11,098 nucleotides of DNA from a virus. The notes beneath the pieces are model-generated. The model was not told the DNA's origin and ran no database searches. It saw only the letters and a program-made list of their open reading frames with translations. The stretch lies in the UHGV virus genome UHGV-0320970; one strand, given 5' to 3'. Position 1 is the first letter of the stretch. Every line of letters starts with the position of its first letter. Made by a program: the position numbers and the translations under genes. This document shows, piece after piece, positions 1 to 11,098 of the stretch.

Positions 1-54
1 TGGGTACCTCCGTAAACTGACCCTGTAGAATCAGTTGTGCCAGTTGTTCATCTG

Positions 55-362
55 TTAGATTGAGTACGTGAGGAGCCCCTTCCGAAATGCACTTTCCTCA
101 GTAGCGGTTATATTTTCACGTTCATTTTTTGCGTATGCATATACGAAAAAGGCCCTTGTGCCGACGCGATAGAAAATGATTGTGCGATAACCGCCAGATT
201 TGCCGCCACCGACTCGTGGCAGACGTTGCTTGATAACGCCGTTACCCAGGTTTGCTGAGATAAGCCCGTTATCAGCCTGTTTAACAATTTCGCGCAGTGA
301 TTGGTCGGATATTTTGTTTTGCGTGCAAGTCGCTCAAACCAGGCGTTTTTAAAAATGCGCAT
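55..362 (-). pseudogene. RelE/ParE-superfamily (HigB-like) type II toxin, disrupted by a single-nucleotide frameshift in an A-run
   Basis: Minus-strand ATG at 360-362 gives MRIFKNAWFERLARK; after the A-run (plus coords ~312-320) the reading continues in another frame as ISDQSLREIVKQADNGLISANLGNGVIKQRLPRVGGGKSGGYRTIIFYRVGTRAFFVYAYAKNERENI... to TAA (55-57). The GKSGGYR ... FFxYAxAKNE pattern is typical of this toxin family. No single frame spans the gene; the track ORF 108..425 is the wrong-frame continuation. Confidence 0.5.
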
Positions 363-384
363 TTTTTGTTCCGTTATTAATGTA

Positions 385-399
385 TAACACATAGTGTTA
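385..399. promoter_or_regulatory. Perfect 6-3-6 inverted repeat TAACAC-ATA-GTGTTA just upstream of the toxin start; candidate operator
   Basis: Palindrome read directly from the sequence, 23 bp upstream of the minus-strand toxin ATG. TA operons are commonly autoregulated at such palindromes. Confidence 0.3.
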
Positions 400-428
400 C
401 ATTGCGTAGGGATCTGCAATGCCATCAG

Positions 429-459
429 TTTGACAACGTCGCGTGTTCGGGGCTATATT
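429..459 (+). promoter_or_regulatory. Candidate sigma70 promoter (TTGACA, ~19 bp spacer, TATATT) facing the nin-type operon
   Basis: Consensus -35 hexamer at 429-434 and -10-like hexamer at 454-459; the spacer is longer than optimal. Motif match only. Confidence 0.2.
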
Positions 460-704
460 CCTCACGCGCCAGCAAAACCTGGCGTCGGGATTAGCACCCC
501 GGATATCGAAACGGTGCATAACCGCGCTGGCGGTTTTTTTATGCGCTAAGCACAGTCACATTCGCGATTTATGGCGGGCTGTGTGGGGGAGCCGAAAGGC
601 TCGCCGGATGTTTCGACCGGTAGTGCTAACCCCGCACAGTTCGCCACCACGATGATTAGCACCTGACGGTGGCGAGGTAAAAATTATCGAAACGCGAGGT
701 CATT

Positions 705-1370
705 ATGGCTGTTCAAATTTCTGTCGAAAACCTTTCCCCTGTTACCTATAACCAGATCCCCGTAATTACTACTGAACTGTTGGCTCACCTTTACGGAACA
801 AAAATCAAAAACATTTCTGATAACTTTCTGAACAACACGACGCGATTCATGCCCGGAAAGCATTACTTTAAAATTGAAAAAAACGAATTACGCGAGTTTA
901 AGAACAGACCCGAAACAATCGGGTTAGTTGGTAAAAATGCCCGCTCCCTCATCCTCTGGACAGAACGCGGCGCAGCCCGTCACGCAAAAATGCTCGAAAC
1001 CGATCGGGCGTGGGAGGTATTCGAAAAACTGGAAGACTGCTATTTCAGCCAGGGAAAAACAGCACCAACCGAACAGCAGCCGCAGATTCAGCCACAATTC
1101 ACAGCCGAAGAAATCATCCTCCTTTGCTACATGCAGCTCTGGATGGAAAAAGCCCAGGACCTCAGCAAACACCTGTATCCCATTATGAAAGAGCTGAACT
1201 CCTCATACACGAACAAGCTGTATGACATTGCGTTTGAGACCATCTACATGGTGACGAAGAACAGAGACGCGCTACTAAGGGAGGTAACACGTCTCGACAT
1301 GTCAAGTTCCGTTATCCAGCGGGCCATGCCAATGCTGAAAAGCCTGCGGGCAAGACAATTTGAATTCTGA
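705..1370 (+). CDS. Phage antirepressor/regulatory-like protein (ORF6N / KilA-N / Roi-like N-terminal DNA-binding domain), 221 aa
   Basis: Long ORF with SD GAGGT 5 nt upstream of the ATG. The N-terminal ~110 aa (VITTELLAHLYGTKIKNISDNFLNN...KNELREF) resembles the N-domain of phage antirepressor-type proteins. It sits immediately upstream of ninB, as in lambdoid nin regions. Family assignment is from recall. Confidence 0.75.
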   Translation: MAVQISVENLSPVTYNQIPVITTELLAHLYGTKIKNISDNFLNNTTRFMPGKHYFKIEKNELREFKNRPETIGLVGKNARSLILWTERGAARHAKMLETDRAWEVFEKLEDCYFSQGKTAPTEQQPQIQPQFTAEEIILLCYMQLWMEKAQDLSKHLYPIMKELNSSYTNKLYDIAFETIYMVTKNRDALLREVTRLDMSSSVIQRAMPMLKSLRARQFEF

Positions 1371-1375
1371 AACTA

Positions 1376-1397
1376 AAGGAGCTTCGGCTCCTTTTTT
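1376..1397 (+). terminator. Intrinsic terminator (AAGGAGC-TTCG-GCTCCTT followed by a T-run), tR2-like position upstream of ninB
   Basis: 7-bp GC-containing stem, 4-nt loop and T6 tail, starting 6 nt after the stop codon of the preceding gene. Confidence 0.6.
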
Positions 1398-1424
1398 GTT
1401 GGGAAAATCCAGTGAGAGGGAATA

Positions 1425-1835
1425 ATGAACCAGACTATCTTCCTCCGAAGTAAACAGCAGCAACAATTCGCCATTAACGCCATCCTTGCAACAACTCTCG
1501 ATAAAGACAAACCCGTTACGATCCGCATCACCGATTACAAGCGGAATCTCGATCAAAATGCCAAATTTCACGCGATGGTCGCTGATATCTCCCGACAGGT
1601 TCAGTGGTGCGGCAGATGGCTAAAACCAGAACAGTGGAAAGTTTTGTTAATCAGCGGTCATGCCGTGGCTACAAAACAGGAAGCTGATGTTTTGCCAGGT
1701 CTTGAAGGTGAATACGTCAATATCCGCGAAAGCAGTGCGCAGATGAGCGTGAAGCGTATGGCAAGCCTGATTGAGTACACAACTTCCTGGGCTGTGGAGC
1801 AGGGTGTCAGATTTACCGACAGGAGGTATGAATGA
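1425..1835 (+). CDS. ninB: NinB-like recombination protein (136 aa)
   Basis: Translation ...[38 protein letters not shown]... aligns by eye with lambda NinB (...RNRSLDQNRKLWACLGDVSRQVEWHGRWL...). SD GAGGG upstream; the stop overlaps the next start. Confidence 0.9.
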
Positions 1836-2023
1836 GACGACAGCGACGAAGCATTACCGATATAGTCTGTGAAAACTGCAATTACCTTCCAACGAAACGC
1901 TCCCGAAATAAACCCAGGCCAATCCCCAACGAATCTGATGTAAAAACCTTCAATTATACGTCTCACCTGTGGGATGTCCGGTGGCTCAGACGTCGTGCAA
2001 GATTTAATAGTCACTCCGGATAG
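1832..2023 (+). CDS. ninE: NinE-like protein (63 aa)
   Basis: [56 protein letters not shown] matches the lambdoid NinE family. The start overlaps the ninB stop (ATGA), the canonical gene order. Confidence 0.85.
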
Positions 2024-2043
2024 TTCAATGTACGAGGAATAAG

Positions 2044-2337
2044 ATGATGGCAAACCTACGCAAAGAAGCGCGTGGCAGAGAATGTCAGGTACGGATTTAC
2101 GGCGTATGCAATGGCAATCCTGAAACTACAGTTTTGGCGCATTACCGAATAGCTGGAATTTGCGGAACGGGAATGAAGCCAGATGACCTGTTGGCTGCAT
2201 GGGCCTGTAGTGACTGCCATAATGAAATCGATCGCCGTACTCGCATTCTCGACAACAACGACGCCAGACTTTACCACCTGGAAGGCGTGATCAGGACGCA
2301 GGCGATATTGCTGAAGGAGGGGAAGATTAAGTCATGA
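2044..2337 (+). CDS. ybcO: YbcO-like DUF1364 protein (Cys/His-rich putative nuclease), 97 aa
   Basis: ARGRECQVRIYGVCNGNPETTVLAH...CSDCHNEIDRR pattern matches the DLP12 YbcO family. Tandem ATGs at 2044 and 2047; the stop overlaps the rusA start. Confidence 0.8.
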   Translation: MMANLRKEARGRECQVRIYGVCNGNPETTVLAHYRIAGICGTGMKPDDLLAAWACSDCHNEIDRRTRILDNNDARLYHLEGVIRTQAILLKEGKIKS

Positions 2338-2696
2338 ATGAATATGAGTTTGTGCTTCCCTGGCCGCCGACGGTGAATACCTACTGGCGAAGACGGGGAA
2401 GCCAGTACTACATCAGCGATAAAGTCCAGAAATACCGAAAAGACGTACAGCAAATCATCCGGCAACTCAGATTAGACATTTTCACTAAATCACGACTTCG
2501 CATCACAATTATTGCTGAACCACCAGACTCCCGCCGTCGCGACCTCGATAACATCCTGAAAGGTTTACTCGACTCTCTTATCCACGCCGGATTTGCGGAA
2601 GACGACGAGCAATTCGATGACATTCGCGTAATTCGCGGCGTGAAAGTGCCTGGCGGTAGAGTGGGGATAAAAATCACCGAACTGGAGAACATTTGA
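2334..2696 (+). CDS. rusA: RusA Holliday-junction resolvase (120 aa)
   Basis: MNEYEFVLPWPPTVNTYW...RRRDLDNILKGLLDSL...DDEQFDDIRV closely parallels E. coli RusA, including the acidic catalytic region. Start overlaps the ybcO stop (ATGA). Confidence 0.92.
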   Translation: MNEYEFVLPWPPTVNTYWRRRGSQYYISDKVQKYRKDVQQIIRQLRLDIFTKSRLRITIIAEPPDSRRRDLDNILKGLLDSLIHAGFAEDDEQFDDIRVIRGVKVPGGRVGIKITELENI

Positions 2697-2890
2697 TGAA
2701 TGCTAAAATTCAAACGATACCTGAATTACTGATCTGCACCAGGGGAAATCAGACAGAAGTCGCCAGAATACTGAACTGCAATCGTGCTACAGTCAGAAAA
2801 TACATTGATGATAAAGATGCGAAAAAGCACGCCGTCGTCAATGGCGTCCTTATGGTTCATCGCGGATGGGGTAAAGATACTGATGCGTGA
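2696..2890 (+). CDS. ninH: NinH-like protein (64 aa)
   Basis: ...[52 protein letters not shown] resembles lambda NinH (HTH-like). The ATG at 2696 overlaps the rusA stop; the track start at 2693 is a TTG three nt upstream. Confidence 0.85.
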
Positions 2891-3263
2891 TATCCGGCAG
2901 GTTCTTGAGCGCTGGGGGGCATGGGCGGTAAATAACTATGAGGATGTTACATGGTCGCCCATTGCTGCCGGATTTAAGGGACTGATCCCCGAAAAAGTAA
3001 AATCACGTCCACAGTGCTGTGACGATGATGCGATGGTGATATGCGGGTGCATAGCCCGCCTTTACCGGAACAATCGCGATCTGCATGACTTGCTGGTTGA
3101 TTACTACGTGTTGGGGGAGACGTTCATGGCGCTGGCACGTAAGCATGGATGCTCTGATGGAACTATCGGTAAAAAATTACAGAAAGCGGAGGGCGTGGTT
3201 GAAGGGATGTTAATGTTACTTGGTGTCAGACTGGAAATGGACCGATATGCGCAACGCCTCTGA
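2883..3263 (+). CDS. Q: Late-gene antiterminator Q, short phage-82 / QuuD-like type (126 aa)
   Basis: The track ORF starts at 2784, but that portion overlaps ninH out of frame. The ATG at 2883 overlaps the ninH stop (ATGCGTGA) and gives [24 protein letters not shown]...[12 protein letters not shown]...[10 protein letters not shown], which matches short Q antiterminators. Last gene of the nin operon, as expected. Confidence 0.85.
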
Positions 3264-3302
3264 CAGGAGGCGTTTGCCGTTCACTATGTGAAGTGTGTCA
3301 AT

Positions 3303-3332
3303 TTGTGAGCGTTATGCTGTTTACTTTATAGT
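3303..3332 (+). promoter_or_regulatory. Candidate late promoter pR' / qut region (TTGTGA, 18 bp, TATAGT)
   Basis: Sits in the 131-bp gap directly downstream of Q, where lambdoid phages carry pR' and the Q-utilisation site. Hexamer match only; the exact promoter is not certain. Confidence 0.3.
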
Positions 3333-3394
3333 ACAGGGACGTAAGAGTTATCTACCTGTTAATAACATATATACAACAATGAACAGGGGGCAAA

Positions 3395-3988
3395 ATGGAC
3401 ATTGAAGATTTTCTGGAGGCGGAAGACAATGATCTGTCTCTGTGGAATGATGATATTTTAAGCATTGACTGGTTCGTTATCCTCAAAGAGCTTTTGAAAT
3501 ACCAGAACAGGTTAAAGTTAAACTATTCAGAATTACTTCTGCTGGCTAATTTTGTTTCATTTCACCAGGACGTAGATTCGCAAACATTACCATCAATATC
3601 TCTTTTTGCCACCAGAATGCGTGCATCTCGTGCCATTATAGAAGAAGGCTTTCAACGCCTGGAGGAGAAAGGGATGTTGCAGAAGATAAGTTATGCTCAA
3701 ATCGGTCATGATTATGATTTGCGGAACGTTTATGACATCAAGCCATTAATTCGTAAGTTAATTGAGGTGCTGAAAACCGAGTATGATAAAAAGCACACTT
3801 GCCCCCTCTGCGGCAAAATAGCTGTCTCTGATGAGGAAATTGAGAAAAAATTCGGATTCAGAATTTGCGGGAATAAGAAAAGGCCGCAAAGCTGGTGCCG
3901 TTCATGCAGAAGCACGAAACAACGCAGACTGAATTCATCGCTAATTGGCAAAAAAAAGCCCCGAAAATCTCCGCCCGAGGTGGTGTGA
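3395..3988 (+). CDS. Moron-like hypothetical protein, 197 aa: acidic N-terminus, winged-helix-like core, C-terminal zinc-ribbon-like motif and basic tail
   Basis: Strong SD AGGGGG 6 nt before the ATG. Visibly more AT-rich than the nin genes. Core ...RASRAIIEEGFQRLEEKGMLQKI... resembles a winged-helix recognition region. C-terminus has CPLCG ... CRSCR and a Lys/Arg-rich tail. I recognise no family. Confidence 0.7.
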   Translation: MDIEDFLEAEDNDLSLWNDDILSIDWFVILKELLKYQNRLKLNYSELLLLANFVSFHQDVDSQTLPSISLFATRMRASRAIIEEGFQRLEEKGMLQKISYAQIGHDYDLRNVYDIKPLIRKLIEVLKTEYDKKHTCPLCGKIAVSDEEIEKKFGFRICGNKKRPQSWCRSCRSTKQRRLNSSLIGKKKPRKSPPEVV

Positions 3989-4101
3989 AGCGTCGCGGAA
4001 CCCCGGATTCCACTCACGATTGAACGAGGTGCTAAAAAGTATTTTACGTACGTAAAAATCTGCATATCATGATAAGAGTGGTTACATTGCCACGCTGCTT
4101 A

Positions 4102-4126
4102 ACCCGCCGATGCGCGGGTTTTTTTG
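4102..4126 (+). terminator. Intrinsic terminator (ACCCGC-CGATGC-GCGGGT followed by a T-run)
   Basis: GC-rich 6-bp stem followed by T7, about 110 nt downstream of the moron gene stop. Candidate tR'-equivalent or moron terminator. Confidence 0.6.
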
Positions 4127-4305
4127 TACCCAGAATCCTGTGAGCTATACGGAAAGTACACAGAAAGGAAGGTACGACCGCAATTAATAACAAAATCTTA
4201 AAAATCTCATATGGCACTATTAGTTTTCTAAATATTGTATATTTTAAGTATTGCAGGATAACCCTGTAACGAAGTTTGCGTAACAGCATTTTGCTCTACG
4301 AGTTT

Positions 4306-4336
4306 GCCAGCCTCCCCTGGTGGCTGGCTTTTTTTG
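4306..4336 (+). terminator. Intrinsic terminator (GCCAGCC-TCCCCTGGT-GGCTGGC followed by a T-run)
   Basis: Perfect 7-bp GC-rich stem, 9-nt loop and T7 tail. Confidence 0.65.
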
Positions 4337-4421
4337 TATCCGTTCAACGGGAATGTTACATACCTCACAATTAAGTCAGTTGAATGTTGTCTGCCCGGAT
4401 GAGAATTTGTTAGAAAAAACT

Positions 4422-4450
4422 GCATGGTGAATCCCCCTGAGCGGAGGGGC
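4422..4450. repeat. Outer inverted repeat P1 (29 bp), left copy
   Basis: GCATGGTGAATCCCCCTGAGCGGAGGGGC; its reverse complement recurs at 4817-4845 with one mismatch. Confidence 0.85.
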
Positions 4451-4520
4451 GACTGGTGACGGTATAATCTCTGATTATCAAAACGAGAATGACGCGGGTT
4501 TAGTGGCACCGGGCTGAACT

Positions 4521-4575
4521 CACCGGGAGGCACCCGGCACCATGCAATGGCACATAGCGCCACTCTCCAGCCCCT
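4521..4575. repeat. Repeat unit 'a' (55 bp), left arm of a perfect inverted repeat
   Basis: CACCGGGAGGCACCCGGCACCATGCAATGGCACATAGCGCCACTCTCCAGCCCCT; exact reverse complement at 4708-4762 (55/55). Confidence 0.95.
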
Positions 4576-4707
4576 CTCCGGAGGGGCTTTCTTATGGACA
4601 AAAAAGCCCGCGCTGGGAGACGCGGGCGGCAAGGAATAAACAATAAAACGTGAAGTAATATTTCAGCTGGCGAATAATACCCCATAGTAATCACTCTGCG
4701 CAACTGC
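4576..4707. repeat. Spacer S (132 bp) enclosed by the 'a' inverted repeat; contains convergent terminator-like hairpins
   Basis: Plus-strand hairpin GCCCCTC-TCCG-GAGGGGC followed by TTTCTT at the a/S boundary. Minus-strand hairpin GCCCGCG...CGCGGGC followed by a T-run (plus coords ~4600-4627). A near-identical copy of S lies at 10917-11049. Confidence 0.85.
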
Positions 4708-4762
4708 AGGGGCTGGAGAGTGGCGCTATGTGCCATTGCATGGTGCCGGGTGCCTCCCGGTG
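4708..4762. repeat. Repeat unit a' (inverted copy of 'a')
   Basis: Exact reverse complement of 4521-4575. Confidence 0.95.
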
Positions 4763-4816
4763 AATTCAGTACCAGCACCTGAATCCGCGATTATCCCATA
4801 TACCTACTCGCTGATT

Positions 4817-4845
4817 GCCCCTCCGCACAGGGGGATTCACCATGC
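4817..4845. repeat. Outer inverted repeat P1', right copy
   Basis: Reverse complement of 4422-4450 with a single mismatch. Confidence 0.85.
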
Positions 4846-4891
4846 CAGTTTCTTTTAACAAACTCCCCGCAAACCAGACAACAGTCAACCG

Positions 4892-4946
4892 CCGGCACCA
4901 TGCAATGGCACATAGCGCCACTCTCCAGCCCCTCTCCGGAGGGGCT
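4892..4946. repeat. Third copy of the 'a' unit, direct orientation
   Basis: 55/55 identical to 4534-4588 (CCGGCACCATGCAATGGCACATAGCGCCACTCTCCAGCCCCTCTCCGGAGGGGCT); flanks differ. Confidence 0.9.
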
Positions 4947-4981
4947 GTTTATATTGATTTTGTCAGATGTGAGTAAACTCC

Positions 4982-5317
4982 TTATGGACTTTGTTGTTTT
5001 AGCCCATAAGGACATATTTGCAGAGTGCAACGGTTATTAAAGCATTCATTCAATACGTTATCTGTATTTGTAGGGCATTCCTGGCTGTTTTTGATTAAAT
5101 TCCAGAATGTTTTATTGAATGGTACTACGTTGTAAATGGTTACAGGTAGCACTTTGTTATTGAGCATGATGCCTGTGTGAGTCAGTGTAAATATACTTTC
5201 AGGAGGTAAGAAAGCATCCGATTGATACCAGATTATTAATTTTATTTTACTCCATATGACTGAAAAAGATATTCCGCATGATGGCTGGATAACTGTATCA
5301 ATCACAATCCACTTCAT
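4982..5317 (-). CDS. Hypothetical protein (111 aa) in an AT-rich island, orientation opposite to neighbours
   Basis: ORF with plausible SD AAGGAA 6 nt upstream of the ATG on the minus strand. Very AT-rich and similar to nothing I recognise; could be a spurious ORF. Confidence 0.3.
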
Positions 5318-5577
5318 TTAGTTTCCTTGTTTATGCCTTGCTGGTGATGTTCTGAAAAGTATAAATGATATTTTTGATTGTAAACCATAGAGCAGAATTA
5401 TTTTTCTGATGTTGTTTATTGTTTATTTAAATGCAGGGTGGTTTATATCTCGTCTTGTAGTTTATCCATGCATATCTGCTTGATGATGAGGTTTTTATTT
5501 AAGGTATGGTTTTGTGTTTTTTCTGTATTACATGTCAGGTATTTTAAAGAATCATTTTTCAGATGGTGGAAAGAACC

Positions 5578-7521
5578 ATGGCATTTAAACACTATGATGT
5601 TGTCAGGGCGGCGTCGCCGTCAGATCTTGCGGAAAAGCTGACACATAAACTGAAAGAGGGCTGGCAGCCGTTTGGCAGTCCTGTGGCTATCACGCCTTAT
5701 ACACTGATGCAGGCCATTGCCGCAGAGGGTGATGTGACCACGCCTGTGGTTGTGCCCGACACAGGGGCTGGTGGCTCTCCGGGAGTGGCTACCACTGAAC
5801 CGGAGTATTACTACGTTATTCCCCTGGCCGGGCAGTCGAACGGTATGGCCTATGGTGAGGGGCTTCCTCTGCCGGAGACCTATGATCGCCCTGACTCCCG
5901 TATTAAGCAGCTGGCCCGTCGCAGCACTGTGACGCCGGGTGGTGATACCTGTGCATACAATGACGTTATTCCGGCAGACCACTGTCTGCATGATGTTCAG
6001 GACATGAGCGCACTTAACCATCCTCATGCAGACCTGAGTAAGGGCCAGTACGGGACTGTCGGTCAGGGGCTGCATATTGCCAAAAAACTGCTGCCTTATA
6101 TCCCGCAGAATGCCGGGATTCTTCTGGTGCCCTGTTGCCGTGGCGGGTCTGGTTTAACCGTGGGTAATGACGGCACGTTCAGCGAAACGTCTGGTGCATC
6201 GGCAAATTCAGCCCGCTGGGGAGTGGGTAAACCGCTGTATCAGGATTTTCTCTTCCGTACAAAAGCGGCGCTGTCGAAGAACCCGAAAAACAGGCTTCTG
6301 GCCGTGGTATGGATGCAGGGGGAAAATGATCTTGCGGACGGCAGTCAGCAGCACAGCGGCCTGTTTACCACTATGGTGCAGCAGTTCAGGGCTGATATGG
6401 CTGCATATTCTGCACAGTGTGTTGGCGGAAGTGCTGGCTCGGTGCCGTGGATTTGTGGTGACACCACGTATTACTGGAAGAATCTTAACGCCGATAAATA
6501 TGAGGCGGTATATGGCGGTTACAAGGGCAGGGAAGCACAGAATATTTTCTTTGTACCGTTCCTGACGGATGAGAATGGACAGAGCACGCCAACGAATGCT
6601 CCGGCGGAAGACCCGGATATTGTGGCTGTCGGGTATTACGGTGCAGCATCCCGAACCCAGGGCAGTTTTGTTTCGACACAGCGTGACAGCCATTTCAGCT
6701 CATGGGCACGCAGGGGCGTCATTTCAGACCGTCTGGCCTCAGCTATTATGCTCCATGCAGGGCGCACGGCTGAATTGATGCGCGGGCAGACCGTGACACC
6801 ACCGGATGAGAAGCCGTCACCTGATACACCATCAAAACCGTCCACGCCACCCGCAGACACCACGACGATGAGTACGCTATTTGCTTACCGGGCATCTGAG
6901 TCTGAAGGACGGTTGACACCACAGGGTTGGGCTGCTGGAGGTGGCAAGGCTCAAATCGTGGATGATGCCGGAGCCAGCGGGGGTAAGGCAATGAAACTGA
7001 CCAAGGAAACAGGAAGAGCCCCCTGGTACCTTGAGCATGATGCTGGTAATGGTGCGGACCTGCTGGGTAAAGGTGGTCTTGTCAGTTGTCGTTTTAAACT
7101 CGATGGCGCGCTTACGGCTAATCAGTACGCACTGGCGCTGTACTGGCCGGTTTCTTCATTGCCTCAGGGTGTCACACTGGAAGGTAATGCCGGTAACAAT
7201 CTGCTGGCGTCGTTTTACGTACAGAGCGATGCCACAGACCTCAACGTGATGTACCACAAGGGTAACGCTGACCAGAACACGAAGCTGGGGTCATTCGGCG
7301 CATTTGACAACGAATGGCATACGCTGGGTTTCCGTTTTGCCGGTAATAACAGCATTCAGGTGACGCCGGTGATTGATGGTCAGGATGGTGCACCGTTCAT
7401 GCTGTCGCAGTCTCCGGTAGGTTCTTTTGCGGCAGACAAATTACGTGTAACGGATATCACAAAAGCGGCGACGTATACGGTGCTGATTGAAAGTATAACA
7501 GTGGAAGTGAATAACCCGTAA
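5578..7521 (+). CDS. nanS-p: Prophage NanS-p-type sialate O-acetylesterase (N-terminal DUF1737-like domain, SGNH/SASA esterase core, C-terminal putative carbohydrate-binding domain), 647 aa
   Basis: The paralogue starts MAFKHYDVV, so the ATG at 5578 is preferred over the track start at 5563. Core contains YYYVIPLAGQSNGMAYGEG (GQSN nucleophile motif) and CGDTTYYW. Located in the post-Q slot where lambdoid and Stx prophages carry nanS-p. Confidence 0.88.
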   Translation: MAFKHYDVVRAASPSDLAEKLTHKLKEGWQPFGSPVAITPYTLMQAIAAEGDVTTPVVVPDTGAGGSPGVATTEPEYYYVIPLAGQSNGMAYGEGLPLPETYDRPDSRIKQLARRSTVTPGGDTCAYNDVIPADHCLHDVQDMSALNHPHADLSKGQYGTVGQGLHIAKKLLPYIPQNAGILLVPCCRGGSGLTVGNDGTFSETSGASANSARWGVGKPLYQDFLFRTKAALSKNPKNRLLAVVWMQGENDLADGSQQHSGLFTTMVQQFRADMAAYSAQCVGGSAGSVPWICGDTTYYWKNLNADKYEAVYGGYKGREAQNIFFVPFLTDENGQSTPTNAPAEDPDIVAVGYYGAASRTQGSFVSTQRDSHFSSWARRGVISDRLASAIMLHAGRTAELMRGQTVTPPDEKPSPDTPSKPSTPPADTTTMSTLFAYRASESEGRLTPQGWAAGGGKAQIVDDAGASGGKAMKLTKETGRAPWYLEHDAGNGADLLGKGGLVSCRFKLDGALTANQYALALYWPVSSLPQGVTLEGNAGNNLLASFYVQSDATDLNVMYHKGNADQNTKLGSFGAFDNEWHTLGFRFAGNNSIQVTPVIDGQDGAPFMLSQSPVGSFAADKLRVTDITKAATYTVLIESITVEVNNP

Positions 7522-7669
7522 GCAGGAAAAAAAGACCGCCGTGGCAGGGAAAACAAGGAGCCAGAACCGGCGGCAGAAGTCGCTACATCCTTAGCAAAAA
7601 TATGCTGAGCAAAAAATGCAGGAGTTTTTTACTGGCAGGCATTGACCATGTCAATAATGGAGATGAATA

Positions 7670-7852
7670 ATGACATTTTTACAGCTGATTATGTTGTATT
7701 TCTGTACAGCAGTTTGTGTGCTGTATCTTCTTTCTGGTGGGTACAGAGTCGTGAGAGATTTCTGGCGCAGACAGATTGACAAAAGGGCCGCTGAGAAAAT
7801 CAGTGCCAGTCAGTCAGCCGGAACAAAACCCGAAGAGCCTCTCATTCCGTAG
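7670..7852 (+). CDS. Small single-pass membrane protein (60 aa), paralogue of 8424..8606
   Basis: MTFLQLIMLYFCTAVCVLYLLSGGY is a hydrophobic helix, followed by a charged tail. SD GGAG upstream. A diverged copy is conserved on the opposite arm. Confidence 0.6.
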   Translation: MTFLQLIMLYFCTAVCVLYLLSGGYRVVRDFWRRQIDKRAAEKISASQSAGTKPEEPLIP

Positions 7853-7889
7853 CAACTTTCTTAACAACACCTTTCAACGAGAAAATACC

Positions 7890-8414
7890 ATGTCAGAAAT
7901 AAAATCGCTGGTCACTGCTGAAGCAGTGAAGGAAGTCCTGCGCTCTGAAGAAGTCAGAAGCGCACTGAAACAGCAACTTCGGCAGAACCTTGAGGCGCGT
8001 CTTGATGCAGAAGTGGATGCCATTCTGGATGAACTGCTGGGCGCACCGACTGTTCCGGAGCCGGAAGGCATTGCGTACCCCGTCTCCCGCAATCCGGAAG
8101 CTCACAACAATATAAAGACCACCGGCACACACCGATGGTCCCTTGCGCATGCTTACATCATCATGTCGCTGTCAGGTGTAGGTTCACCGCCATCTGAAGC
8201 ACTCCCGTCACCCGCGATACCTTCCGGCTCAGGAACCGCTGCTACGCCCAGCAGCTCATCCAGAATGGCATCCACTTCTGCATCAAGACGCGACTCAAGA
8301 TTCTGGCGAAGTTTCTGTTTCAGTGCGCTCCGGACCTCTTCAGAGCGCAGGACTTCCTTCACTGCCTCTGCAGTGACCAGGGATGTGATTTCTGACATGG
8401 GATTTTCTCGCTGA
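7890..8414 (+). CDS. 81-aa-family acidic helical protein, plus-arm copy; homology ends near 8078 and the ORF then reads through the palindrome centre antisense to the other copy (possibly truncated or fused)
   Basis: MSEIKSLVTAEAVKEVLRSEEVRSALKQQLRQNLEARLDAEVDAILDELLG...PEPEGIA matches the minus-arm copy for 63 aa, then diverges with no nearby stop. Confidence 0.45.
   Translation: MSEIKSLVTAEAVKEVLRSEEVRSALKQQLRQNLEARLDAEVDAILDELLGAPTVPEPEGIAYPVSRNPEAHNNIKTTGTHRWSLAHAYIIMSLSGVGSPPSEALPSPAIPSGSGTAATPSSSSRMASTSASRRDSRFWRSFCFSALRTSSERRTSFTASAVTRDVISDMGFSR
8153..8398 (-). CDS. 81-aa acidic helical protein, minus-arm copy (apparently intact)
   Basis: MSEITSLVTAEAVKEVLRSEEVRSALKQKLRQNLESRLDAEVDAILDELLG...PEPEGIAGDGSASDGGEPTPDSDMMM with its own stop at 8153-8155. 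Confidence 0.6.
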   Translation of the reverse strand: MSEITSLVTAEAVKEVLRSEEVRSALKQKLRQNLESRLDAEVDAILDELLGVAAVPEPEGIAGDGSASDGGEPTPDSDMMM

Positions 8415-8423
8415 AAGGGGTTG

Positions 8424-8606
8424 TTAAGGAGTAACGGGTTCTTCGGGTTTGCTTCCGGCTGACTGACTGGCGCTGATTTTCTCAGCGGCCCTTTTATCAA
8501 TCTGCCTGCACCAGAAATCGCGCACAGCCCTGTACCCACCCGAAAGAAGATACAGCACACAGACCGCCGTACAGAAGTACAGCATCACCTGATGAATAAA
8601 TGTCAT
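8424..8606 (-). CDS. Small single-pass membrane protein (60 aa), paralogue of 7670..7852
   Basis: MTFIHQVMLYFCTAVCVLYLLSGGYRAVRDFWCRQIDKRAAEKISASQSAGSKPEEPVTP; diverged from the plus-arm copy at several positions, so not a recent exact duplicate. Confidence 0.6.
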   Translation of the reverse strand: MTFIHQVMLYFCTAVCVLYLLSGGYRAVRDFWCRQIDKRAAEKISASQSAGSKPEEPVTP

Positions 8607-8745
8607 AATTTCTTACCGTTATGGTTGACAATGAGAATTGTTTTCATTTAAAAAACCAATGTACGAAAGCATCTTTTCTTTACATTCTCCATTGGGATTA
8701 CCTCCGCCAGCTTCCATTCCTGCCGCTGGCGGCTTTTTTTAGCAA

Positions 8746-10656
8746 TTATGCGGCTGCTCCAGCTTTGTTTGCTTTAACTTCCACCGTATCAATAAGTACA
8801 GGGTAGGTTTCTGCACTACCTGTAATATCCGTAATGACAAACCTGTTGAGTCCATTAGCAGTATTGGCCCATTTCACCAGGTCAAACGCCTGTCCATCCA
8901 CACCATCGAGCACCGGAGTAACATTAATGCTGTTACTGCCCTTAAATTTAAATGCAAGCGTATGCCAGTCATGGTCGAATGCGCCAAACGTGCCAAGTTC
9001 TTTTTGTTGATTAACTGTATGATGGTATGCAACATTAATACTGGCTTTATCTGTCTGGACAAAGAAAGAACTCAGATGGCCTTCACCACCCTCACCCGGC
9101 CATTCCGCTATTCGCCAGTACAAACCAAAGGCATACTTGTTTCTGGTTGTCTCAAGATTGACGTTTTCGGGGATTTTAAACCGGACAGCAATTTCCCCGC
9201 CTTTTTCCAGTAAAAGTTTTGCCTTGTCTGCAGCAATATCACAGTACATTGACCAGGATTTCGCGCTGTTATTTTTCTCAATTCGCAGAGCTTTATTGCC
9301 GCTGTCATCAACCAGTGTGCGTCTGCCATACATACCGTCCCAGCCATAAGGTTTCAGCTGATTGTCTGTAGCTTTTTTGGCATCGTAAAAAATTACAGAC
9401 TCTGAGGTGGTAACCGGCCTGTCTGGAACAACCACCCCGGCAGTACCATTAACAAACGCAGAAGACTTACCCGCGCAGCTCAGAATCGCCGTTGCCAGAC
9501 GGTCGGAAATAATCCCACGGCGAGCCCATGAACTGAAATGGCTCGCCCTGTCCTGTGACGTCCAGGTGGCTGAGCTGTCACGCCATTTCGAACCGTAATA
9601 ACCGATACCCGGAATGTCCGGGTCTTCTTCCGGTTTGTTCGTCGGCACATTCACCCCGTTCTCATCGGTCATGAACGGTACGAAATGGATATTCTTTTCC
9701 GTTTTATTTTTATAGCTGCCGTACACCGTCTGGTACGTGGATTCGTTCTTCTGCTTCCAGAAATACGTCGTGTCCCCGCATATCCAGGGAACACCGCCAG
9801 CAGAGCCACCGACGCACTGGCCTGCCATATCCGCCAGGTCTGCACGGAATTTATCAACCAGCGCACCAAACTGTGCGGCATGATTTGCCGGCGTACCGCC
9901 AAAATCAAATTCCCCCTGCATCCACACCACGGCAAACAGCACATTTTTCGGGTTCTTCTCCAGTGCCGCTTTTGTTCGACCGATAAGGTCCTTATACAGC
10001 GGCTTGTCCACACCCCAGCGGGTTGAATTCTCCGAGGCACCACTCGCGTCACTGTATGTGCCATCAGCTCCGGTGGTGAACGCTGAACCACCACGACAGC
10101 ACGGAACCAGCAGAATGCCCGCATTCGCCGGTATAAACGGCAGCAGTTTTTTGGCGATATGCAGCCCCTGCCCCACGGTTCCGTACTGCCCCTTTGACAG
10201 GTCCGCTTTCGGATGGTTAAGACGGCTCATGTCCTGCACATCATGCAGACAATGGTCCGCCGGAATGATGTCGTTATATTTGCATGCTGCACCGCCCGGT
10301 GTCACCGTACTGCGACGCGCTAACTGTTTAATACGTGGATCAGGGCTGTCGAATGTATCCGGTAATGGCAGTCCCTCACCGTATGACATACCATTGGACT
10401 GACCAGCAAGCGCGATCACATAGTAATATTCTGGCGCAACAGAAGGCGCTGAGGTCGTCGGACGGTTGCCTGGCTCCTCTGGTGATGAGATGCTCCCCTC
10501 ACTCACAACTGGCTGGATGAACTCCGCACCATAACCAGCTGTCGAAATCAGCGCACTACCATAAGGCTGCCACCCTTCCTTCAGTTTTTGAGTTATTCGT
10601 TTCGCAAGGTCTGACGGCGACGCCGCCCTGACAACATCATAGTGTTTAAATGCCAT
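8746..10656 (-). CDS. nanS-p: Second, diverged NanS-p-type sialate O-acetylesterase (636 aa)
   Basis: MAFKHYDVVRAASPSDLA..., YYYVIALAGQSNGMSYGEG, CGDTTYFW. Strong SD GGGAGG 5 nt upstream on the minus strand. Same three-domain layout as 5578..7521 but with many substitutions, especially in the linker and C-terminal domain. Confidence 0.9.
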   Translation of the reverse strand: MAFKHYDVVRAASPSDLAKRITQKLKEGWQPYGSALISTAGYGAEFIQPVVSEGSISSPEEPGNRPTTSAPSVAPEYYYVIALAGQSNGMSYGEGLPLPDTFDSPDPRIKQLARRSTVTPGGAACKYNDIIPADHCLHDVQDMSRLNHPKADLSKGQYGTVGQGLHIAKKLLPFIPANAGILLVPCCRGGSAFTTGADGTYSDASGASENSTRWGVDKPLYKDLIGRTKAALEKNPKNVLFAVVWMQGEFDFGGTPANHAAQFGALVDKFRADLADMAGQCVGGSAGGVPWICGDTTYFWKQKNESTYQTVYGSYKNKTEKNIHFVPFMTDENGVNVPTNKPEEDPDIPGIGYYGSKWRDSSATWTSQDRASHFSSWARRGIISDRLATAILSCAGKSSAFVNGTAGVVVPDRPVTTSESVIFYDAKKATDNQLKPYGWDGMYGRRTLVDDSGNKALRIEKNNSAKSWSMYCDIAADKAKLLLEKGGEIAVRFKIPENVNLETTRNKYAFGLYWRIAEWPGEGGEGHLSSFFVQTDKASINVAYHHTVNQQKELGTFGAFDHDWHTLAFKFKGSNSINVTPVLDGVDGQAFDLVKWANTANGLNRFVITDITGSAETYPVLIDTVEVKANKAGAAA

Positions 10657-10720: not shown

Positions 10721-10838
10721 AGGACAATGGCAGAAGGGAGACTACAGCCCGCAATTCGAAAAAGGTCGCGCAGTTGCGCAGAGTGATTACTATGGGGTAT
10801 TATTCGCCAGCTGAAATATTACTTCACGTTTTATTGTT
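10721..10838. repeat. Left arm of the terminal palindrome (118 bp)
   Basis: Reverse complement of 10981-11098, checked by eye over both ends. Its inner ~70 bp is the reverse complement of the right part of spacer S. Confidence 0.85.
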
Positions 10839-10916
10839 GATTCAGGTGCTGGTACTGAATTCACCGGGAGGCACCCGGCACCATGCAATGGCACATAGCG
10901 CCACTCTCCAGCCCCT
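10839..10916. repeat. 78-bp block identical to the reverse complement of 4708-4785 (flank R0 plus unit 'a')
   Basis: GATTCAGGTGCTGGTACTGAATT followed by the 55-bp 'a' unit; exact match to the reverse complement of the locus-1 a'+flank. Confidence 0.9.
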
Positions 10917-11049
10917 CTCCGGAGGGGCTTTCTTGTGGGCAAAAAAAGCCCGCGCTGGGAGACGCGGGCGGCAAGGAATAAACAATAAAACGTGAAGTAA
11001 TATTTCAGCTGGCGAATAATACCCCATAGTAATCACTCTGCGCAACTGC
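10917..11049. repeat. Second copy of spacer S, same plus-strand orientation as 4576-4707
   Basis: Near-identical to 4576-4707 apart from an extra A in the A-run and two substitutions (CTTATGGACA vs CTTGTGGGCA). Confidence 0.9.
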
Positions 11050-11098
11050 GCGACCTTTTTCGAATTGCGGGCTGTAGTCTCCCTTCTGCCATTGTCCT
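10981..11098. repeat. Right arm of the terminal palindrome, running to the window edge
   Basis: Reverse complement of 10721-10838; the palindrome may continue beyond the window. Confidence 0.85.

Follow-up and report, generated by a model that had tools for sequence, protein, structure and literature searches.

A truncated DUF826 gene with an accidental open extension at an inverted joint between two lambdoid prophage late regions of Escherichia coli, probably on a chimeric assembly path

Prophage–prophage inversions are familiar from E. coli O157 and its relatives, where they involve two lambdoid prophages of one genome and a change of orientation. Homologous inversion of this kind yields collinear hybrids, in which the crossover lies inside shared sequence. 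The late regions of Stx2a phages carry ORFs for DUF826 and DUF1378 between nanS-p and S, and the function of both is unknown (PMC10462455). Inverted joints of another sort are described for chimeras formed in MDA: more than 85% of these are both inverted and intramolecular; the distances bridged range from 0 to more than 5,000 nt and peak at 250–300 nt, and the joints usually show complementarity of 2–21 nt with a peak at ∼6 nt (PMC1855051, PMC4595205).

The stretch of DNA analysed here, called the window throughout (11,098 nt of UHGV virus genome UHGV-0320970), is late-region DNA of lambdoid E. coli prophages. It holds two copies of DUF826 on opposite strands, both belonging to the same family as the genes of lambdoid and Stx-converting prophages and both occupying the same place, after a NanS-p-type esterase gene and DUF1378 (Table 1). 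One copy opens a 174-codon reading frame that crosses an inverted joint (J3) and runs on into the DNA carrying the other copy. We explain this frame by a truncated DUF826 gene, an accidental open frame behind it and a chimeric assembly path, an account to which we assign a probability of about 0.7. Two lambdoid prophages of one genome and a change of orientation are involved, as in the O157 inversions; here, however, the late regions stand head to head and meet bluntly, with 0 shared bases, and the homologous mechanism is inapplicable.

Table 1. Features, joints and segments of the window
Feature	Position	Strand	Remarks
c4-a1b1 targets	453–505	+	Rfam match
isrK	466–540	+	Rfam match
C4 antisense RNA	567–651	+	Rfam match
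ORF6N/P22_AR_C antirepressor	705–1370	+	
NinB, NinE, DUF1364, RusA, NinH, Q		+	
DnaD_N-like protein	3395–3988	+	197 aa; DnaD_N E = 2e-8, weak HTH_36 match
STnc100 (RF02076)	4394–4599	+	Rfam, 165 bits
STnc100 (RF02076)	4698–4874	-	Rfam, 106 bits
STnc100 (RF02076)	10751–10940	+	Rfam, 61 bits
Segment	1–4707		B-type early region and leader
Segment	4708–4893		Reverse complement, 186 nt of A-type leader
Segment	4892–8075		A-type leader and late genes
Segment	8076–10838		Reverse complement of B-type late genes
Segment	10839–11098		Third leader type ("C"), also in E. coli 55989
Joint J1	4707..4708		B leader to reverse complement of leader core; loop 132 nt, overlap 0 nt
Joint J2	4891..4894 (∼4893)		Within A-type leader; loop 142 nt, overlap 2 nt (CC)
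Joint J3	8075..8076		A-type DUF826 codon 62 to reverse strand at first base of class II holin ATG; single-copy loop 160 nt, overlap 0 nt
Joint J4	10838..10839		Within C-type leader; loop 142 nt, overlap 0 nt
111-aa ORF	4982–5317	-	Antisense to late operon, upstream of 652-aa esterase
SASA/NanS-p-type carbohydrate esterase, A-type	5563..7521	+	652 aa; exact protein on 4 public contigs
DUF1378, A-type arm	7670..7852	+	Pfam PF07125, 128.6 bits
DUF826 5' fragment, A-type	7890..8075	+	Codons 1–62 of 89; native ribosome-binding site and start codon kept
Non-genic ORF extension	8076..8414	+	112 codons; no Pfam match; no homologue spans it
A/B-identical stretch	8076..8110	-	35 nt just upstream of holin ATG; allele turns from A to B here
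B-type DUF826–holin spacer	8076..8152	-	99.9% identity to native B loci L001 and L003, where class II holin follows
DUF826, intact, B-type	8153..8398	-	81 aa; Pfam positions 1–75 of 75, 149 bits
DUF1378, B-type arm	8424..8606	-	ORF; annotated DUF1378 in native loci
SASA/NanS-p-type carbohydrate esterase, B-type	8746..10656	-	636 aa; exact protein in 413 collection blocks

The RNA matches at 453–651 (+) lie directly upstream of the antirepressor gene, and this region looks like an antirepressor control module of the P1/P7 immI or Gifsy isrK kind. At the position equivalent to ∼228|229, NMBU-W12E19 (L003) has an insertion of an IS66-family element; in the window this site is empty, and the DNA runs on uninterrupted as in IS-free loci such as L009 (99.9%). 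The DnaD_N protein is encoded between the gene for the antiterminator Q and the late leader, an unusual location for a replication-type domain, and its gene may be a moron. The three STnc100 matches fall in the leader between Q and esterase and share a core of ∼60 nt ending in a terminator-like hairpin (AGCCCCTC-TCCG-GAGGGGCT); copies two and three have been cut or rearranged at joints. STnc100 has been related to the PasD sRNAs of Stx phages (2026 preprint). For the 111-aa ORF, hmmscan at E ≤ 0.01 gave no match, while a precomputed table assigns PF11183 (PmrD) to the identical gene in L004–L007. The two esterases have diverged, with ∼69–76% nucleotide identity, and the 636-aa allele is the very common one. 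Of the four contigs with the exact 652-aa protein only L004 is long enough to display the native order SASA–DUF1378–DUF826–holin; among the 10 places listed of the 413 with the 636-aa protein there are 0 inverted joints, and the native order is found wherever the extent suffices.

The reading frame and the DUF826 family

The plus-strand frame is open throughout from the ATG at 7890 to the TGA at 8412–8414, that is, for 174 codons and a stop. The initial annotation had seen no stop until 8414, which is borne out, and had given a product of 175 aa, which is one residue too long. It had also let homology end after PEPEGIA, correctly, and placed this near 8078, whereas the exact breakpoint is 8075|8076. 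Only codons 1–62 are a real gene, the DUF826 of a lambdoid E. coli prophage. The left arm, and with it 7890–8075, is 100% identical to native A-type DNA on a JGI metagenome contig (L004) and in prophage A of NMBU-W12E19 (L002, at 1.71 Mb), and this identity ends at 8075.

Searches at the protein level stop at the same place. Pfam family PF05696 (gathering cut-off 25 bits) matches the 174-aa product over residues 1–63 only, at profile positions 1–63 of 75 and with 114.5 bits, and no Pfam match was found beyond residue 63; the cut-off is exceeded by both DUF826 copies, since the minus-arm copy scores 149.4 bits. When the 174-aa product was used as a query against 5.8 billion protein clusters, 33 matches were returned, each covering at most 47% of the ORF and all of them with PF05696. 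Neither Pfam nor these 5.8 billion clusters provided a family or a homologue for the 112-codon extension, and an exact look-up of the products of ORFs spanning J3 (174, 212, 85 and 72 aa) found none of them recorded as a called gene. A gene of this length should have an extension that is conserved in homologues or belongs to a known family, and the 174-codon ORF has neither; as a whole it is not a gene, whether the joint is real or an artefact. The extension itself is very probably non-functional. It should be noted that the ribosome-binding site and start codon are kept, and with a real joint late transcription could lead to a 174-aa product.

The native length of the truncated gene is known from its parent. 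The A-type allele that is 100% identical up to 8075 encodes 89 aa (...PEPEGIADDSAVSDGVGSQPDGSEWPQPDGEMMM*); after the breakpoint it goes on as ...DDSAVSDGVGSQPDGSEWPQPDGEMMM*, with an acidic tail and the end ...GEMMM*. The plus-arm gene, described before as having 81 aa, is therefore an 89-aa gene that has lost its last 27 codons, the acidic tail and MMM included. In a survey of the family, 97 fetched loci gave 93 DUF826 genes, and every one of the 93 is 81 or 89 aa long and closes with an acidic tail and MMM*. No family member has an equivalent of the 112-codon tail of the plus copy, and no homologue carries it. Native proteins that end like the minus-arm copy, and an extension without conservation, are what the initial annotation had itself named as counting against its reading.

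The minus-arm DUF826 is identical to WP_001290235-type genes in native loci and has everything expected of a full-length member (profile positions 1–75, acidic tail, MMM, a length within 81–89 aa), which the plus-arm copy lacks. Of the two, the minus-arm gene is an ordinary DUF826 and the plus-arm gene a fragment. As to context, the holin gene follows DUF826 on the same strand, 74–77 nt downstream, in all native loci with enough sequence. The order esterase–DUF1378–DUF826–holin on one strand is found for neither copy in the window: the plus copy is followed by inverted DNA from 8076, and the holin of the minus copy is cut to its first base.

Openness of the antisense frame

By origin, the 112 codons of the extension fall into three parts: the first ∼26 (8076–8152) derive from the intergenic spacer that separates DUF826 from holin in the B-type prophage, ∼82 read the antisense strand of the minus-arm DUF826 (8153–8398) and the last ∼4 come from the 16 nt upstream of the start codon of that gene. 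The earlier view that the C-terminal ∼110 residues are translated antisense to the minus-arm copy is right for ∼82 of the 112 and wrong for the remaining ∼26 and ∼4.

A stop in this antisense register requires a sense codon that begins with TA or CA (Tyr, His, Gln) and follows a codon ending in T or, in the case of TA, also in C. The DUF826 protein has no Tyr, no His and two Gln, and the frame of the extension is open because of this amino-acid composition. Among synonymous recodings of the protein, 76–83% leave the antisense frame open, and in natural DNA it is free of stops in 28 of 30 unique alleles and in both copies of the window. The ORF is therefore no longer than its underlying sequence accounts for, and its length calls for no further cause. 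When sequence of this composition was shuffled, an open frame of 113 codons arose in ∼2% of trials.

The same 28 alleles and two window copies could be cited in favour of a genuine overlapping gene antisense to DUF826, which the extension would tap. Openness of the frame is, however, just what the random recodings lead one to expect, and the divergence of the two arms follows the sense frame: they differ at 21 of 186 nt, 14 of these 21 differences being at sense third-codon positions, and the result is 6 amino-acid changes of 62 in the sense frame against 10–19 in the antisense frames (10 of 61 in one of them). The antisense product, moreover, has no match in Pfam and none among database proteins. 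On the recodings, the arm differences and the protein search we reject such a gene, whose chance of existing we regard as minute.

Accidental ORFs that mirror this one lie on the minus strand across the same joint, at 7874–8092 (72 aa) and 7893–8150 (85 aa), and the former reads the same stop-free antisense frame of DUF826. Neither the 72-aa nor the 85-aa product has a Pfam match or a database record.

Strand switches in the window

The right arm, from 8076 on, shares 99.9% identity with the native B-type loci of FORC_069 (L001) and NMBU-W12E19 (L003, at 5.16 Mb). The two arms share 89% identity across DUF826 and 76–83% elsewhere; they are two different prophage late regions and not a recent duplication. 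Both parental arms exist in native form at separate chromosomal sites of NMBU-W12E19, and both are also present in 23CRST047/049. The initial annotation had spoken of a palindrome of paralogues, which is misleading for arms that come from different prophages; its suggestion that the junction of the inversion had truncated or fused a gene was sound, the cut falling after codon 62 of 89 at a blunt joint to inverted DNA of the other prophage.

In an alignment of the window with both native types, A (L002) and B (L003), 0 bases are shared at J3. Since no base is shared, homologous recombination is excluded as the origin of this joint, and neither a crossover in shared sequence nor a collinear product, as expected of homologous inversion, is found. 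Exactly 35 nt from 8076 onward also equal native A in reverse complement (up to the holin A), after which the sequence follows B. Short motifs do occur around the joint: ATTGCG at 8070–8075 is complementary to CGCAAT at 8088–8093, and TCCGGA is present on both sides. Priming on these motifs would give a direct deletion and not an inverted joint, and the centre has no exceptional fold (z = –1.2 to –1.8), so we also reject an origin of J3 by microhomology or hairpin priming. A separate hairpin with a 13-bp stem (8114–8143) lies between the stop of the B-type DUF826 and the start of the holin and has a weak T-run on the minus strand only. It is kept in native B loci and could be a modulator of holin expression.

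J3 is not the only joint of its kind. When mapped to native loci, the window resolves into five segments on alternating strands, and four joints lie within 6 kb, each readable as a single allele that folds back on its complementary strand. Around J1, J3 and J4, both flanks agree with one allele up to the point where it gives way to another. After J1 the window continues as the reverse complement of its own B leader for 56 nt and then turns A-type; the sequences on either side of J4 are compatible with one C-type leader of the kind found in E. coli 55989. With an overlap of 74 nt, the two B pieces jointly rebuild one ordinary native B prophage, and the A pieces behave likewise. All four joints thus have what a fold-back should have: a strand switch within the same allele, a short and similar distance and little overlap.

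The leaders contain inverted repeats at 4708–4749 / 4892–4933 and at 10721–10843 / 10976–11098. Native hairpins with flipped spacers were considered as their source and rejected: the native A and B leaders show no such repeats on self-comparison, and therefore the former pair was made by J2 and the latter by J4. Stretches of 108–118 nt are used two or three times within the window, and on this ground a plain de Bruijn unitig was rejected as its source.

Origin of the joints and their significance

None of J1, J2, J3 and J4 was found by BLAST in 5,426 E. coli genomes, all of them complete (for J3 the queries were 7600–8700, 7400–8120 and 1–8075). The segments between the joints are all present in complete E. 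coli genomes at 98.5–100% identity. J3 was not found by BLAST in phage and plasmid collections either (query 7900–8260), nor by exact 28-mer scans in GTDB representatives, JGI metagenomes and IMG/VR. The joint is thus absent from independent genomes while its flanks are common in native form, as a fold-back artefact predicts. Absence from the searched collections does not prove absence from all E. coli.

Four blunt fold-backs with near-equal offsets, followed by a change of allele through short identity, make a chimeric assembly path the simplest account. J3 shares an artefact-like signature with three other fold-back joints, all of them unique, and its existence in a cell is doubtful for that reason; judged by sequence pattern, it is probably an assembly artefact. 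An assembler would have followed fold-back chimeric reads and then taken the wrong branch where co-resident prophages share at least 35 nt (56 nt after J1, 35 nt after J3). A possible source of such reads is the concatenation of read pairs without reverse-complementing the second read, in which case the offset would be insert length minus read length and the overlap random; blunt library chimeras are another. The reuse of 108–118 nt means, however, that the window is not a simple unitig.

Among the inverted chimeras that arise in amplification, library preparation or read handling and are carried on by assemblers, those of MDA resemble the window in being short-range strand switches on the same molecule, several per few kb (Lasken & Stockwell 2007, PMC1855051; PMC4595205). 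In contrast to them, the window has overlaps of 0, 2, 0 and 0 nt and distances held tightly to 132–160 nt. Orientation and short distance fit MDA and the missing overlap and tight spacing fit it poorly, so it was set aside as the specific artefact; the joints seem better suited to blunt concatenation, for example of unsplit read pairs.

Real rearrangement of DNA could, in principle, produce the same sequence. J3 would then stem from a complex rearrangement between co-resident lambdoid prophages, by serial template switching of the MMBIR/FoSTeS type in replication or repair or by illegitimate deletion or inversion; the late operons would stand head to head, both without holin, endolysin and structural genes, and the DUF826 fragment would be a fusion pseudogene. 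Authentic prophage DNA accounts for the whole window at the identity given above, NMBU-W12E19 and 23CRST047/049 show that both parental arms can reside in one genome, and replication-based template switching could give several inverted joints with little microhomology; from MMBIR, several close inverted joints with 0–5 nt of microhomology are expected. However, four independent illegitimate strand switches would be needed in 6 kb, all with loops of 132–160 nt, together with allele exchanges over merely 35 and 56 nt of identity, and 0 of the 4 joints occur in the complete genomes. Three of the four joints have zero overlap, yet E. coli is not known to have efficient blunt end-joining. We consider a real rearrangement at J3 unlikely. 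Still less probable, in our view, is that all four joints come from one in vivo episode of serial strand switching between replicating co-resident lambdoid prophages. If that were true, the constant offset of ∼130–160 nt would reflect replication-fork geometry, the head-to-head late operons would send colliding Q-dependent transcripts into each other and the DUF826 fusion product would be made.

The initial annotation had also proposed convergent transcription with antisense interference between the two copies. Here a plus-arm transcript would run antisense through the minus-arm DUF826, DUF1378 and esterase genes and interfere with their expression. If the joint were real, such a transcript would meet no strong plus-strand terminator in 7890–8414, the T-run of the 8114–8143 hairpin being on the minus strand, and in lambdoid phages Q-modified late transcription resists terminators anyway. 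Against it, the arrangement is unique to the window, and therefore nothing suggests selection for it. The STnc100-like leader next to the right arm (10751–10940, +) points away from the right-arm genes, which leaves this arm without a correctly oriented late leader within the window, and the folding across the centre offers nothing unusual. With a unique arrangement, a misdirected leader and a doubtful joint that it presupposes, functional interference is without support and very improbable.

We therefore return to a truncated DUF826 gene on a probably chimeric path. No new biology is involved: a truncated member of a known family and accidental sequence joined to it make up the ORF, whose biological weight is therefore small. 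The practical value of the result is a warning. Since the window holds four unique fold-back joints and owes its "palindrome" to them, findings that build on the latter are suspect, be they inverted paralogues, antisense pairs or hairpins around STnc100-like leaders. Should the joints nevertheless be real, the window would show in a natural setting how prophages lose lysis through template switching between them in several steps, and would be relevant to prophage decay and genome rearrangement.
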